DNA of 64,000 nt, from positions 192,001 through 256,000 of the forward strand of contig CAVPSB010000019.1 of assembly GCA_963708025.1 (NCBI GenBank). The letters run 5' to 3'. The position numbers and the translations under genes were made by a program. Under the pieces are notes generated by a model that saw only the letters and a program-made list of their open reading frames with translations, did no database searches and was not told the origin of the DNA. Positions 12,764-63,092 of the stretch are shown piece after piece (the stretch's first letter is position 1; the number at the start of each line of letters is the position of its first letter). This DNA comes from an uncultured Candidatus Rokubacteria bacterium. GTDB taxonomy: Bacteria > Methylomirabilota > Methylomirabilia > Rokubacteriales > DASRDR01.

Positions 12764-15527
12764 ATGTCGGAGATCTGCCTCACGGTGAACGACGCGGAGG
12801 TCTGCATCCCGCTGCGTCCGGGGGTGAGCCTCCTCGACCTGCTTCGCGAGGACCTCGGGCTGACCGGGACCAAGTCGGGCTGCCTCGAAGGCGAGTGCGG
12901 CGCGTGCGCGGTCCGGCTCGACGGGCGCGTCGTCAATAGCTGCCTGGTCCCGGCCGCCAGGGCCGGCGGGGCGACGGTCACGACGATCGAAGGGCTTGGC
13001 CCGGGGCCCGGCGCGAGCCGGGACGCCGGCGCCGGACTGCACCCCGTGCAGGAGGCCTTCGTCCAGGCCGGCGCCGTCCAGTGCGGGATCTGCATCCCCG
13101 GCATGGTGATGGGGGTCGCCGCCCTGCTCGAGGTGAACCCGGACCCCACCCGCGCCGAGGCGCAGGCCTGGCTCTGCGGCCACCTCTGCCGCTGCACCGG
13201 CTACACGAAGATCCTGGACGCGGTCGAGCTGGCGGCGCGCCTGATCCGCGACGGCGCCGCGCCGGCGCGCGACACCGGCGCGGTCGGCCGGCCGGCGGCG
13301 CGCGTGGACGCCGAGGCCAAGGTGCGGGGGACGGCGCTCTACGCGGACGACTACCAGCCGCCCGGCTGCCTCCACCTCCAGGTCGTGCGGAGCCCGCACG
13401 CCTACGCGGAGGTGCTCGGCGTGGACCCGGCGCCGGCCCTCGCGCTGCCGGGGGTCGCGGCCGTCCTCACGGCGGCGCGACGTGTCGGGTCGGAACGCCT
13501 ACGGGATCATCGTCGAGGACCAGCCGGTCTTCTGCGACAGTGTCGTCCGCTACGTCGGCGATGCGGTGACGGCAGTCGTCGCCGAGAGCCGGGAGGCGGC
13601 GGAGGCCGGCGCCCGCGCGGTGCGGGTGGAGTACCGGCCGCTCGAGCCCGTCCTCTCGGTGGAGGCCGCCCGGGCGCCGGAGGCGCCGCGGCTCCACCCC
13701 GACGGCAACCTCCTCGCGCGGCCGGCCGTGCGGAAGGGCGACGTCGGCCGCGGCTTCGCCGACGCGGCAGCGGTCGTGGAAGGAACGTGGCAGACCCAGT
13801 GGATCGAGCACGCCTACATCGAGCCGGAGGCGGGGGTCGCGGAGCCCCAGGCGGACGGGAGCGTCAGCCTGATCGTGTCCACGCAGACCCCGTACATGGA
13901 CCGTGACGCGACGGCCCGGGTCCTCGGGATCCCGCCCGAGCGCGTCCGCGTGATCCAGGCCGTGACCGGCGGCGGCTTCGGTGGGAAGCTCGACCTCTCG
14001 GTCCAGCCGTACCTGGCCCTGGCCGCCCTGAAGCTCGGGCGGCCGGTCAAGTGCGCCTTCGGCCGCGAAGAGTCGGTGCTGGCGACGGTGAAGCGCCATC
14101 CCTACCGGACGCGGGTGCGGCTCGGCGCCGATGCGGCCGGCCGCTTCACCGCGGTCGAGGTCGAGATCGAGGGCGACACCGGCGCCTACGCGTCGTGGGG
14201 GCCGACCGTGATCACCCGGGCCTGCATCCACGCCAGCGGGCCGTACGTCGTGCCCCACGTGGAGGCCCGAGGGCAGCTCTGGTACACGAACCACCCGCCG
14301 GCCGGCGCCATGCGGGGCTTCTCGACGCCGCAGGTGGCGGTGGCGACGGAGGGCGCCATCGACCTGCTGGCGCTCGAGCTGGGCGTGGATCCGATCGAGC
14401 TGCGGCTGCGGAACGCGCTGCGGCGGGGGAGCGTGACCGGGACCGGGCAGGTCCTCGAGGGGAGCGTCGGCCTCGTCGAGACGCTGGAGGCCGTGCGGGA
14501 GACACGGCGCCGGCTCGATCCGCTCCCGGTGGAGGACGGCCCGTGGGTCCTGGGCGAGGGCGTGGCCTCGATGTGGTACGGGATCGGCAACACCGCGCTC
14601 TCGAACCCGGCGGAGGTGCGGGTCGAGCTGGAGGCCGACGGCCGGGTGCACCTCTACAGCTCGGCGGCCGACATCGGGCAGGGCTCCTCCACGATCCTCG
14701 CCCAGATCCTGGCCGAGACGCTGGCGTGCGAGCTCGACGCGATCCGGCTCACCATGGCCGACACCCGGCTCACGCCGGACTCGGGGAAGACCTCGGCGAG
14801 CCGGGTCGCGTTCATCGTGGGGAACGCCGTGCGGGACGCCGGCCAGGCCCTGGTCAAGAGCGTGGCCGCCGAGGGCGCGGCGCTGCTCGGGGTGGCGCCG
14901 GACCGCGTGCGGGTGCGCGGCGGCCGGGTGGAGCGGACGGACGGGCGGAGCGCGGTCGGCCTCGACGCGGTGGCCCGGGCGATCCGCGAGCGGGACGGAC
15001 AGGTGGCCTTCCGCGGCTGGTTCGATCCCCAGACGACCCCGCTCGACGCCGACGGCCAGGGGGTGCCGTACCAGACGTACGCCTTCGCCACCCAGCTCGC
15101 CCAGCTCCACGTCAACCGGGGGACCGGCGAGGTCCGCGTGCGCCGGGTCATCGCCGCCCACGACCTCGGCCGGGCCATCAACCCCCAGGCCGCCGAGGGG
15201 CAGATCGAGGGCGGCGTGGTCATGGGGCTCGGCTTCGCCCTGACCGAGGAGTACGTGCCGGGCCGGACGCTGAACTTCTCGACGTACCTGATCCCCACCG
15301 CGCTCGAGGTGCCGGAGATCGTCCCGATCCTGGTCGAGCCCGGCGACCCCTTCGGGCCGTTCGGGGCCAAGGGGGTCGGCGAGCCGGCGATGATCGCGAC
15401 GGCGCCGGCCGTGCTCAACGCGATCTCGCGGGCGATCGGCCACCGGATCTGGCGGCTGCCGGCGACCCCCGAGCGCGTCTTCCGGGCGATGCGCGGCGGG
15501 CGGTCGATCCAGGGAGATTCCCGATGA
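12764..15527 (+). CDS. Fused [2Fe-2S] + molybdopterin subunit, nicotinate dehydrogenase-like (NdhS-L-M); frameshift near 13480
   Basis: GCLEGECGAC, QCGICIPG, LCRCTGY; GGGFGGK, AMRGF, SMWYGIGNT, ADIGQG, GAKGVGE. Confidence 0.88.
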
Positions 15528-60680: not shown

Positions 60681-60763
60681 GGGGTCAGGCCTTTCATTCT
60701 TTACATTCCTTGCGCGGTCCCGGCGGGGAGCCGGAGACTGTCACGAATGAAAGGCCCGACCCC
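60681..60763. repeat. 83-bp REP/MITE-like element, family A short form (copy 1)
   Basis: GGGGTCAGGCCTTTCATTC..GAATGAAAGGCCCGACCCC. Confidence 0.9.
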
Positions 60764-61392
60764 ACGCCGGGGCGATAGCCGGCCGCGATCGCGGCGACGC
60801 TGGAGCGCGGGGTGAGGACCGTGACGATCGCCTCACCGGGGCAGTCCCGGGGCGGTCCATATCCAGCGGGTGACCAGGGCCGGAGGGTGCCCTGCCACAC
60901 CAGGAGTGGATCGGCGGCGCCGGGCAGCGCGACGATCACGCCGTCCGGCAGCGTGCCGAGCGTGGCGCGGAACGTGTGCTGCCGGCCGTCGGAGCCGAGC
61001 CGATCCCGGTGGAGCTCCCGGTCGATGGCGGCGATCGGAGCGCCGGGATGGAGACCCCGATCGGGGTTCCCGGTGAGCCAGGCGGCCTTGAACCGGCGGT
61101 AGTCGGCCCGGCGGCACTCGCCGCACGGGCGGTGTCCAGCGGCCAGCGCGGTGGCCTCGTCCAGGAAGAAGAGCTCGGTGTACCGCCCGGGCGTCATCAC
61201 GGCCCGCCGGCGCCCGCGGAAATCCAGCCGACACGTCACCCAGGCGCGATAGCCGGCGGCGACCCGGCGGACGATGCGGCGGGACGCATCGTGGAGCCGC
61301 CCCCGGTTCCCCATGAGCGTGCCGCGGGTGGAGACGGCGAGAAGGTCCCCGAAGGGGTCCCCGCGGTTCTGCAGCGGGGTCAGGCCTTTCAT
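60694..61392 (-). CDS. Conserved hypothetical protein with an Ada-like metal-binding motif; both termini lie inside family A repeats
   Basis: PLQNR, MGNRG, WVTC, YTELFFLDEATALAAGHRPCGECRR, VLTP. Confidence 0.8.
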   Translation of the reverse strand: MKGLTPLQNRGDPFGDLLAVSTRGTLMGNRGRLHDASRRIVRRVAAGYRAWVTCRLDFRGRRRAVMTPGRYTELFFLDEATALAAGHRPCGECRRADYRRFKAAWLTGNPDRGLHPGAPIAAIDRELHRDRLGSDGRQHTFRATLGTLPDGVIVALPGAADPLLVWQGTLRPWSPAGYGPPRDCPGEAIVTVLTPRSSVAAIAAGYRPGVGSGLSFVTVSGSPPGPRKECKE

Positions 61393-61458
61393 TCTTTACA
61401 TTTCTTGCGCGGTCCCGGCGGGGAGCCGAAGACTGTTAAGAATGAAAGGCCTGACCCC
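61376..61458. repeat. 83-bp REP/MITE-like element, family A short form (copy 2)
   Basis: 78/83 identical to 60681-60763, same orientation. Confidence 0.9.
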
Positions 61459-61460
61459 AC

Positions 61461-62198
61461 TTACCAGATCTCGGCGGGGATCGGGAGGCTCCGGAGGTCG
61501 GCCTCGGTGAGCGGCGCGTTTGGCGTGATGCCCACGCCGCCGAGGAGGGCGTGGATCTGGCGGACGTGCTGGGCGGCGTGCCAGGTCGTGCGCTCCAGCA
61601 GGTCGTGCCCGCTCTGCGGGCCGTAGTAGGTCTCGACGAGGCCCTCCCACGCCCCGGGCCGGGCGAACCACTCGGCGAGTCGGCGGCGGACCGTCTTGCC
61701 GTAGGCCGCCACGGCGGGTCCGTCGGCCACCTCGGGCGGCGCCGCCTCGTCGAGCCACGCCTTCGGCAGGCGCCGCGCCGCCATGGCCTCGGGGAAGGCG
61801 AGCGCCAGCCGGAACACGTGGTAGCCGAGCTGCCGGATCGAGCGGTCACGGCCCGGGTGGGCCAGCTCCAAGTGCTCGGGCGGGACCTGGCGCATCGCCT
61901 GCGCGGCCAGGTCGAGGATCCGATCCAGGCGCCGGGCCAGCTCCGGCGGCGCCAGGCGGTCCGCCGCCTCGTACGGCATCCCGACCAGCGCCGCGAGCGC
62001 CTTCGGGTTCCAGCCATGGACAACGCGATCGCCAATGACGGTCGCCGGCGGCCCCGGTACGCCGAGACGGGCCAGCTCCGCGCGCGCCGCGGGCCGCGCC
62101 TCGACGTCGATCGCCTCGAACGGCACGTTCCACGACGCGAGCAACTCTCGCGTCTTGGCGCAGGAGCTTCAGCCGGGGCGGAGGTACACGGTGACCAT
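61461..62198 (-). CDS. Probable selenoprotein: glutaredoxin-like (UxxC) + DinB-like domain fusion
   Basis: GAGGTG RBS, ATG 62198, MVTVYLRPG-TGA-SSCAKTRELL in frame with ORF 61461..62144; Grx VPGPPATVIG; DinB-like RSIRQLGYH and WHAAQHVRQ. Confidence 0.85.
62130..62158 (-). promoter_or_regulatory. Bacterial SECIS-like hairpin
   Basis: mRNA: UGA-N10-CCA-A-GACGCGAG-[AGUUG]-CUCGCGUC-G-UGG. Confidence 0.7.
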
Positions 62199-62261
62199 GC
62201 GCTTCACCTCTTCCGGTTCAGTGGGCGGGGCCGATGAGCGTCGCAATCTTCATCTCGGTCG

Positions 62262-62420
62262 TGACGCGCTCGGCCTACGGCCTCGCGTCCGTCCCGACCT
62301 CTGGTCGTCGTTCGGACGGCCCTCGGCCTTTGGGGTCGTCGCCGATCCTCGGCGTACTCGGAGTACGCCTGCGGTCGGCGACTCCCTGCGTCCTAGCGCT
62401 GCTCGCTCCTCGACCCCGCC
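62262..62420. repeat. Family D composite palindromic repeat (copy 2)
   Basis: GACGCGCTCGGCCTACGGCCTCGCGTCCGTCCCG and CCTCGGCGTACT-CGG-AGTACGCC. Confidence 0.7.
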
Positions 62421-62471
62421 CCGAGAACTTGACTCACCTTGACTGGAGTCTAGACCAGGCTAGCGCCGAGC

Positions 62472-63092
62472 TCAACGCGTTGCGCGGCGGCGGGCGCACT
62501 TGGGTCGCCGGCGCGGGGGGATCGAGGCCTCCCCGACGGGGGCGGTCGCGCCGGACGCGGTTTCCCACGCCGCCGGGTCCTGGCGGAAGTAGTCGCTCAG
62601 GATGTCGTACAGCGCCCGGTGGCTCCGGCGGAGCGCGACGGGGATCCCGAAGAAGGCCTCGGCGGCGACGGCGAGGAACTCGACCCGGTTCGTCAGCGCG
62701 TACGGGCTGAGGACCGACTGCCCGCGCAGCAAACGCTTCTCCTCGCGCGGCCACAGTCGGTCCCAGGCCGCCCTCCGGGCCGAGCCAAAGCCGACCGGGA
62801 TCCCGTCCGCCTCGCCGTCCCCCATGTCCAGGAGGTGCGTGAACTCGTGGATCCCCACGTGGTAGCCGCCGGCGCGATTCTCGAAGCTCGCCTGAAGGCT
62901 CGGCGCCGACATCACCACGATGCCCCACGGGTGAGCCTGTCCCGCCAGCTCGGGGGCGTCGAAGCCGTACTCCTCGTCGAAGTCCTTCGGGTAGAGGAGG
63001 ACTTCCGACAGGCGGGTCCACGCGGACCCCGGCCAGCCCGCCGTGAGGGTCACGGCCGACGCGGCGACCAGAACCCGCAGCTCCTCGGTCAC
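62472..63092 (-). CDS. MtfA/M90-like zinc-dependent peptidase, apparently N-terminally truncated
   Basis: EVLLYP, LAGQA, VGIHEFTHLLD, DGIP, YALTNRVEFLAVAAEAFF. Confidence 0.8.
   Translation of the reverse strand: MTEELRVLVAASAVTLTAGWPGSAWTRLSEVLLYPKDFDEEYGFDAPELAGQAHPWGIVVMSAPSLQASFENRAGGYHVGIHEFTHLLDMGDGEADGIPVGFGSARRAAWDRLWPREEKRLLRGQSVLSPYALTNRVEFLAVAAEAFFGIPVALRRSHRALYDILSDYFRQDPAAWETASGATAPVGEASIPPRRRPKCARRRATR

Follow-up and report, generated by a model that had tools for sequence, protein, structure and literature searches.

In the 64,000-nucleotide (nt) stretch of DNA analyzed here, hereafter the window (positions 192,001 to 256,000 of contig CAVPSB010000019.1, from an uncultured Candidatus Rokubacteria bacterium), the minus-strand gene at 61461..62198 is very probably a genuine selenoprotein gene, in which an internal UGA is decoded as selenocysteine (Sec) and whose product joins a glutaredoxin/NrdH-like domain to a DinB domain. 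From comparison with related genes, selenium is predicted, almost certainly, to enter the protein at this codon. Sec-containing glutaredoxins (Grx) are already known; the fusion to DinB is, as far as we have seen, new and unannotated, and it is widespread, occurring in many bacteria of soil and water. The features that define the gene are as follows.

61461..62198, minus strand: full selenoprotein coding sequence, translated with TGA as U and with coordinates checked by script; 245 codons plus a TAA stop at 61463-61461, with Sec as codon 10
62205..62210, minus strand: Shine-Dalgarno-like GAGGTG, seen in the sequence 6 nt 5′ of ATG 62198; a putative ribosome-binding site (RBS)
62169..62171, minus strand: in-frame TGA, predicted to encode selenocysteine as residue 10, the first position of U-S-S-C, from codon conservation and Cys pairing

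A UGA codon conserved at the redoxin active site

The minus strand of 61300-62400 was examined for reading frame, RBS and codons. The frame opens with ATG at 62198-62196, and the nine codons MVTVYLRPG lead to TGA at 62171-62169, which is followed by AGC TCC TGC; the last of these codons (62162-62160) encodes Cys13. The TGA is the only one in frame in the 245 codons opened by ATG 62198. G+C content in the locus around the gene is 74%. A first-pass annotation, made from the letters of this DNA and a list of its open reading frames (ORFs), had proposed a GAGGTG RBS, a start at ATG 62198 and MVTVYLRPG-UGA-SSC in frame, all of which are present in the sequence. It had also remarked that the ORF track begins at TTG 62144, as the mechanical ORF list indeed has it (61461..62144, minus strand, 227 amino acids, TTG start). 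This apparent start falls within the loop of the hairpin described in the next section.

When 251 genomes of the phylum were searched in six frames, the gene turned up in 157, a tally that takes in the unpublished genomes G076, G217 and G218. By table count, 143 of the 150 matches listed from this search reach query residue 5 or earlier, and 142 of these contain one TGA (one of them with an extra TAG at a contig end). The sole TGA-free match among those listed is a second copy in G190, a paralogue that reads CSSC. When loci from published genomes of other species in the phylum were examined, each of the 30 had the TGA in the same position, within the retained flanking peptides xxLY[HY]R[PQ]G upstream and SSCAKT[RK]ELL downstream. 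The in-frame UGA is therefore bordered by conserved coding sequence on both sides.

Outside the phylum, species-representative genomes were scanned with an alignment of divergent, N-terminally short forms, which gave 528 confirmed relatives, of which 80 loci were kept. By record title these belong to Gamma-, Alpha- and Betaproteobacteria, SAR324 and a few others. The homologous codon is TGA in 70 of the 80 loci and TGC or TGT in the other 10; at the second Cys codon all 80 have TGY. A further sample consisted of 50 full-length representatives (29–42% identity), chosen because their matches begin at query residue 2–5. Forty-nine of them carry CxxC at the position of U-S-S-C, as C[ST][SGA]C in 48 and as CSNC in one. 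The first-pass annotation had placed the UGA at the first Cys position of a glutaredoxin CxxC and had suggested aligning homologues for Cys/UGA pairing at this codon; the alignments bear out both the position and the pairing, the latter through the distant homologues, the Cys-encoding loci outside the phylum and the CSSC paralogue.

The Sec form outnumbers the Cys form among the loci examined. A FastTree phylogeny of 100 Sec and 11 Cys forms requires a minimum of 5 Sec/Cys changes, of which well-supported branches force at least 3; as the tree was made with FastTree only and has several long branches, single placements on it are unsafe. With at least 5 switches on the tree, the natural Sec/Cys pairs are well suited to asking what selenium gains the enzyme.

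The genome that contains the window (8.17 Mb in 49 contigs, rated 99.67% complete) encodes the machinery that such a codon would need. On contig 32, selA (597.8 bits) and selB (371.9 bits) directly adjoin a tRNA-Sec gene (76.2 bits against a cut-off of 47) whose anticodon is TCA according to ARAGORN. On contig 7, selD (91381-92304; 398.4 bits) has an in-frame TGA of its own in the canonical GAG-U-ACK context. All four of selA, selB, selC and selD, the genes whose presence the first-pass annotation had proposed to check, score above curated cut-offs. In the phylum, selA is above cut-off in 215 of the 251 genomes, a tally that includes two flagged as unpublished, G034 and G076. A second selD-like match (270 bits) lies on contig 23 within an 833-residue open frame and is possibly part of a fusion protein.

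A SECIS-type hairpin and the decoding of the UGA

62130..62158, minus strand: hairpin of the selenocysteine insertion sequence (SECIS) type, with an 8-bp core stem (62154-62147/62141-62134), loop AGUUG (62146-62142) and a 3-bp lower extension; from folding and covariation

A stem-loop with G and U in its apical loop follows the UGA after a short interval, a spacing and loop of the kind expected for SelB binding. A perfect 8-bp stem, GACGCGAG/CUCGCGUC, closes the 5-nt loop AGUUG. This stem starts 14 nt 3′ of the UGA, and a 3-bp extension, CCA/UGG, lying past one unpaired A/G, starts at 10 nt. The first-pass annotation had described a perfect 8-bp stem and a G-containing 5-nt loop beginning ten nt downstream; stem and loop are there, with 10 nt being the start of the 3-bp extension.

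The stem covaries among relatives. In an ungapped alignment of 30 sequences, 24 of them distinct, no cell of the 8 core pairs is unpaired. Compensatory changes occur at two core pairs, one switching between A-U and C-G (5 rows) and the other between G-C and A-U (7 rows); a third varies between A-U and G-U (3 rows), and the AGUUG loop is invariant across the phylum alignment. The covariation score is 0.175, compared with 0.085 ± 0.014 in shuffles, none of which reached that value (0 of 500), and it falls to 0.055 or less when the partners are slid by 1–3 columns. The compensatory changes alter amino acids (Arg/Lys, Ala/Ser); since changes in the stem cost changes in the protein, RNA structure constrains the protein at the hairpin. 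What had first been called a SECIS-like hairpin is thus a SECIS-type stem that covaries. Among the 80 loci outside the phylum, an unbroken stem of at least 7 bp lies within 60 nt downstream in 67 of the 70 TGA forms versus 2 of the 10 Cys forms. The stem starts 14–16 nt after the UGA in 38 loci (loop GUU) and 29 nt after it in 25 loci (loops GUG, CGUGC and CGUGA); in this tally, which covers 63 of the 67 stems, most loops are GUU, GUG or CGUGC.

Several results weigh against reading the UGA as Sec, and the first of them concern this hairpin. The 66-nt stretch that contains it folds at −26 kcal/mol; shuffled versions average −24.1 ± 3.2 (z = −0.59), and 53 of 200 are at least equally stable. 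By itself the hairpin does not exceed what chance would give in such G+C-rich DNA. Nor does mean downstream folding energy do much to separate TGA forms (−14.5 kcal/mol, n = 70) from Cys forms (−13.2 kcal/mol, n = 10) outside the phylum. Energy was tried as a Sec/Cys discriminator and dropped, as the values are near equal; unbroken stem length was useful instead. Rfam searches of the whole window at gathering thresholds gave no match, a blank that says little, as it is uncertain whether Rfam models bacterial SECIS elements of this kind, and a search of 62150-62520 at an E-value threshold gave a chance match only (E 0.88). What raises the hairpin above chance is that the TGA, the flanking peptide and the covarying stem are kept across other genomes. 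Two more points on this side, which concern the Sec genes of some relatives and the nature of the reads behind the codon, are taken up below with the explanations they would favor.

The public databases would appear, at first sight, to place the start of the protein after the UGA. A search of 5.8 billion clustered proteins returned 1179 matches at E ≤0.001. The best 120 of the 1179 are all 214–228 residues long and start at LLASW/MLSSW or later, which is after the TGA, and the starts of the nearest entries often coincide with the TTG or ATG within the SECIS loop. Entries 96%, 92% and 82% identical, the nearest in the database, share the same point of truncation. Gene callers end the frame at the UGA and open a new one at the TTG or ATG in the loop, so the public entries come out short and without the active site. 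An exhaustive search of cluster representatives gave 990 matches at E ≤0.001, and of the best 150 of these the CxxC N terminus is intact in 51 and lacking in 99. The only organism name among the best 120 of the 1179 matches is that of a Candidatus Rokubacteria metagenome-assembled genome (MAG; P0010, 67% identity). With all 120 nearest public proteins lacking the active site, there is an annotation gap, and a profile for the family would correct many annotations and increase the number of selenoproteins counted in genomes from soil, groundwater and the sea.

If the TGA were instead a true stop, the functional gene would be the 227-residue ORF from TTG 62144, encoding a DinB protein preceded by a damaged remnant of glutaredoxin, and the 27 nt upstream would be untranslated leader or decayed remnant. 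The mechanical ORF list, the best 120 of the 1179 database entries and the unexceptional energy of the hairpin all agree with such an arrangement, which we nonetheless consider very improbable. In 30 of 30 loci within the phylum and 70 of 80 outside it, down to ~30% identity, the frame, LY[HY]R[PQ]G, the TGA and the second Cys codon are all kept, as they would not be in a dead remnant. In addition, homologues that encode Cys here have the full length, and in the 227-residue form the fold, modeled as intact, would be without its active site and strand 1.

A second way to dispense with Sec would be for near-cognate or suppressor decoding to place Trp, Cys or Gly at the UGA, with the hairpin merely slowing the ribosome. 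Selenium in the protein is predicted rather than seen by experiment, which leaves room for this idea, and so do some of the relatives. We examined five genomes that are 95–99% complete and contain the TGA form but gave no selA match at E 1e-60 (assemblies of 220–820 contigs). Three of them, all from the same order as the window's genome (G170, G105 and G117), have neither selA nor tRNA-Sec above cut-off; the remaining two have selA fragments at contig ends, and one of these also has tRNA-Sec. As the three assemblies are fragmented and selC, selA and selB share one locus, the loss of one contig could remove the whole set, and a missing contig is the most likely reason for the absence. Readthrough by another amino acid would also have to account for the nature of the site, which is the nucleophilic position of CxxC and alternates only with Cys, the signature of Sec/Cys exchange, as well as for the complete Sec system of the window's genome, the presence there of another Sec gene (selD) and the prevalence of selA in the phylum. 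We regard it as very improbable.

Finally, the codon is known from assembled contigs, not from raw reads, and a sequencing or assembly error could in principle have turned TGC or TGT into TGA. However, 100 independent assemblies agree on the TGA, and the closest database proteins are all truncated at the corresponding position. Contigs from four public runs, which are themselves assembled, fragmentary and mostly from relatives, cover 62144-62174 and show no other letter at 62169-62171. An error here is vanishingly improbable. Pieces from an RNA library also cover 62130-62186; since DNA carry-over is possible, they were not counted as expression.

Together with the machinery described above, these results suggest that the gene product would be made along established bacterial lines. 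Translation would begin at ATG 62198, and the UGA at codon 10 would be decoded by the SelA, SelB, tRNA-Sec and SelD of the genome itself, with SelB recruited by the hairpin at 62158-62130, which starts 10–14 nt downstream of the UGA. The expected product has 245 residues and would consist of an N-terminal U-S-S-C redoxin and a C-terminal DinB bundle, similar to S-transferases, with a three-His metal site.

Domains, predicted fold and possible catalysis

61974..62195, minus strand: glutaredoxin/NrdH-like thioredoxin-fold domain, residues 2-75, with U10-S-S-C13 and invariant Pro51 (62048-62046); from Pfam and fold
61494..61949, minus strand: DinB/YfiT-type four-helix bundle, residues ~84-235, with His127 (61820-61818), His207 (61580-61578) and His211 (61568-61566); from fold and alignment

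Pfam Glutaredoxin (PF00462) matches residues 2-60 with 49.8 bits (cut-off 22.9). In a 42-sequence alignment the invariant residues are Pro51, presumably the cis-Pro of the thioredoxin fold, His127, His207 and His211 (pattern H ... HxxxH), Gly193 and Pro241, and the DinB domain contains no conserved Cys. To judge from the motif pattern, H127, H207 and H211 are likely to occupy the positions of the metal site. The first-pass annotation had singled out His residues in LGYH and WHAAQH as candidates; these are the three invariant ones. Its broader proposal, a glutaredoxin joined to a DinB-type domain with a His triad, agrees with Pfam, with the predicted fold and with the invariant residues.

An AlphaFold2 model built on the 42-sequence alignment (mean predicted local distance difference test score, pLDDT, 96.6; predicted TM-score, pTM, 0.90) points to one compact two-domain body. 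In this model a strand at 2-6 is followed by a helix at 11-22, with U10-S-S-C13 near the start of helix 1. Grx, NrdH and BC3987 structures align with the N-terminal domain at Z 11.8–13.5, the best being BC3987 (Z 13.5), NrdH (Z 12.8) and 7c10 (cGrx1; Z 12.3, root-mean-square deviation [rmsd] 1.3). The last of these, titled 'Dithiol cGrx1', deposited as 'Glutaredoxin' and taken by us to be clostridial Grx1, is also the best profile match to this domain among solved chains (E 9.6e-18). NrdH-type redoxins, which are reduced by thioredoxin reductase rather than by glutathione, are among the best matches of the domain in both fold and sequence. For the C-terminal domain, the best fold match is DR0053 (Z 15.3, rmsd 2.3, 141 of 144 residues), followed by further DinB proteins at ranks 2–13 (Z 12.6–14.4), which include YfiT at 12.7; MST and BstA score 11.9 and 10.4. 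Nine DinB-like chains other than DR0053 fall at Z 12.7–14.4. Foldseek gives a TM-score on target of 0.82 for the DinB-type bundle. Among solved structures, no single chain spans both domains (best query TM-score 0.51).

Curated protein families do not describe the fusion. No NCBIfam model reaches its cut-off with the window's protein or with five Cys forms. Below cut-off, the window's protein scores 35.1 with NrdH (TIGR02194; cut-off 85.75), 53.8 with the YruB-type glutaredoxin-like model (TIGR02196; 88.55) and 37.7 with the metal-binding family TIGR03086 (83), the last over residues 93-206 only. The UXX-star models are likewise below cut-off (NF041212, 34.0 versus 66; NF041211, 25.8 versus 100; NF047338, 27.6 versus 97). 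They differ in layout as well, having 70–71 positions and, judging by the family name, Sec near the C terminus, whereas in the protein described here Sec is residue 10 of 245.

How might the two domains work together? In the DinB superfamily the usual metal site is made of three His residues, and the characterized members are metal-dependent thiol transferases (PMC10950700). One possibility is that the DinB metal site would bind and polarize a thiol-reactive or oxidized small-molecule substrate, which Sec10 would then attack; Cys13 would resolve the adduct to leave a selenenyl-sulfide, and this would be re-reduced by a cellular thiol system. Such a cycle would be that of a reductase or thiol-transferase, resembling Cys-type glutathione S-transferases (GSTs) but run with selenium, and the enzyme would carry its own nucleophile. 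We put this self-contained cycle of Sec10, Cys13 and the DinB metal forward tentatively, as somewhat short of an even chance; it is suggested by the U/CxxC motif, the three-His site, the absence of a conserved Cys from the DinB domain, the compact body and the lack of a conserved partner gene. As the DinB domain has no conserved Cys, it is unlikely that the redoxin serves merely to reduce a disulfide in its partner domain. More doubtful is the wider proposal that these proteins form a large unnamed selenoprotein family across several phyla, in which the Sec of a tethered redoxin acts at the three-His metal center of DinB and replaces a free thiol cofactor.

Two findings limit these functional proposals. 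Pfam DinB_2 (PF12867) matches residues 91-215 with 22.5 bits, just below its cut-off of 24.8. Among seven relatives scanned with the same model, three pass (29.4, 32.1 and 31.7 bits), two fall below (19.2 and 20.9 bits) and two, P0152 and P0130, give no match. Moreover, when 106 flanking frames at 55 of 110 loci were compared with Pfam, no neighboring gene was conserved across lineages. Recurrent neighbors are local to lineages: a luciferase-like monooxygenase (4 loci), TauE (4), glyoxalase (6), a CCG/FAD-oxidase (6) and TauD (5).

Known systems and genomic surroundings

The closest precedents for the N-terminal half are Sec-containing Grx. A 2026 inventory of prokaryotic selenoproteins, with 119 families, lists the UxxC selenocysteine glutaredoxin as experimentally verified and cites work on Clostridium Grx (PMC13188914). 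Two marine surveys report 10 sequences of UxxC Grx from the Sargasso Sea (PMC1088965) and, from the Global Ocean Sampling data, 2 sequences of 'Grx' and 42 of 'Grx-like' (PMC2398784). The window's protein resembles these in being a thioredoxin-fold redoxin with Sec at the first CxxC position and a SECIS directly downstream; it differs in that the known ones are single-domain proteins of ~80–110 residues, whereas here a 160-residue DinB domain is added and the motif is U-[ST]-[SG]-C. Some of the metagenomic 'Grx' and 'Grx-like' sequences may be fragments of the glutaredoxin-DinB family. The inventory also describes a Methylomirabilota MAG with 63 predicted selenoproteins (PMC13188914), and the family may have been counted under 'Grx' among these. 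The term DinB occurs 0 times in the main texts of PMC13188914 and PMC2398784, and full-text literature searches for selenoprotein or selenocysteine with DinB returned unrelated papers only. Our searches found no curated model and no paper for a glutaredoxin-DinB fusion.

Precedents for the C-terminal half come from the DinB/YfiT superfamily (the bacillithiol transferase BstA/YfiT, the mycothiol S-transferase MST, and DR0053), whose members are also four-helix bundles with a metal held by conserved His; a structure of MST contains mycothiol and Zn. BstA/YfiT and MST work with a free thiol of low molecular weight and lack a fused redoxin, whereas the protein described here has a built-in Sec/Cys redoxin and, by analogy, may act as a transferase. 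The DinB-domain iron enzymes EgtB, OvsA and SenA, which form C-S or C-Se bonds, have a three-His DinB domain that superposes on that of the model (Z 10.2–11.2); they carry a large FGE-sulfatase-like domain that is absent here, and they have no redoxin, so the likeness is confined to the bundle. In overall design the fusion recalls GSTs and fusions of redoxins to enzymes, such as the hybrid Prx5-Grx 1nm3 and the glutaredoxin/ferredoxin-disulfide-reductase 7pwe, in which a thioredoxin-fold thiol domain is coupled to a second one for catalysis or substrate binding. Superposition of the redoxin parts gives Z 12.0 (7pwe) and 9.8 (1nm3); GSTs match only through their N-terminal domain or loosely (Z ~9), and in place of the GST C-terminal domain the fusion has a helical DinB bundle that carries a metal site. 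The family joins Sec-containing redoxins with the poorly understood metal-dependent thiol transferases of the DinB type, two themes that have so far been studied apart.

Longer fused forms were considered as a clue to function and set aside, as one match in a search for longer proteins and P0187 were too little to go on. In P0187 (721 amino acids), an MmgE/PrpD domain pair precedes a glutaredoxin-DinB module in the CSSC form (residues 471-715); this is either a rare fusion or a join made in gene calling.

The first-pass annotation had also pointed to a possibly Se-dependent molybdenum (Mo) hydroxylase in the window, a suggestion that did not hold up. The MoCoBD_1 large subunit at ~13704-14417 is one of 26 matches in the genome, and no match was found in the genome to yqeB (TIGR03309), which we take to be the marker of the selenium-cofactor trait. 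A selenium dependence of this hydroxylase, or a tie between it and the glutaredoxin-DinB gene, is not supported, as nothing points to either.

The 5′ intergenic region of the gene contains an interspersed repeat of ~220 nt (62220-62439, minus strand) that has 55 matches in the genome, among them ~40 long copies at 76–98% identity, and that belongs to no Rfam family. Another copy adjoins selB on contig 32 (201381-201558). The segment at 62223-62300 was considered as a regulatory 5′ leader RNA and rejected, since its depth of >1000 in soil-metagenome contigs is explained by the 55 genome matches of the repeat. Just 3′ of the stop codon, at ~61380-61455, lies a long inverted repeat with two ~21-nt arms and a ~30-nt spacer. 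To judge from near-identical peptide strings in two ORF translations, a similar stretch occurs near 60700-60780, and the inverted repeat probably represents either another small family of repeats or a shared terminator.

The gene is flanked upstream by a peptidase M90 gene (62472-63092, minus strand; MtfA-like, with an HEFTH motif) and downstream by a 232-residue ORF (60694-61392, minus strand). Further downstream, on the opposite strand, is a luciferase-like monooxygenase that recurs at the three closest related loci. At a locus in a Betaproteobacteria MAG (L075:1124-2515), the neighbor of the Sec gene matches Pfam UGSC (PF24696), which we take to be another selenoprotein family.

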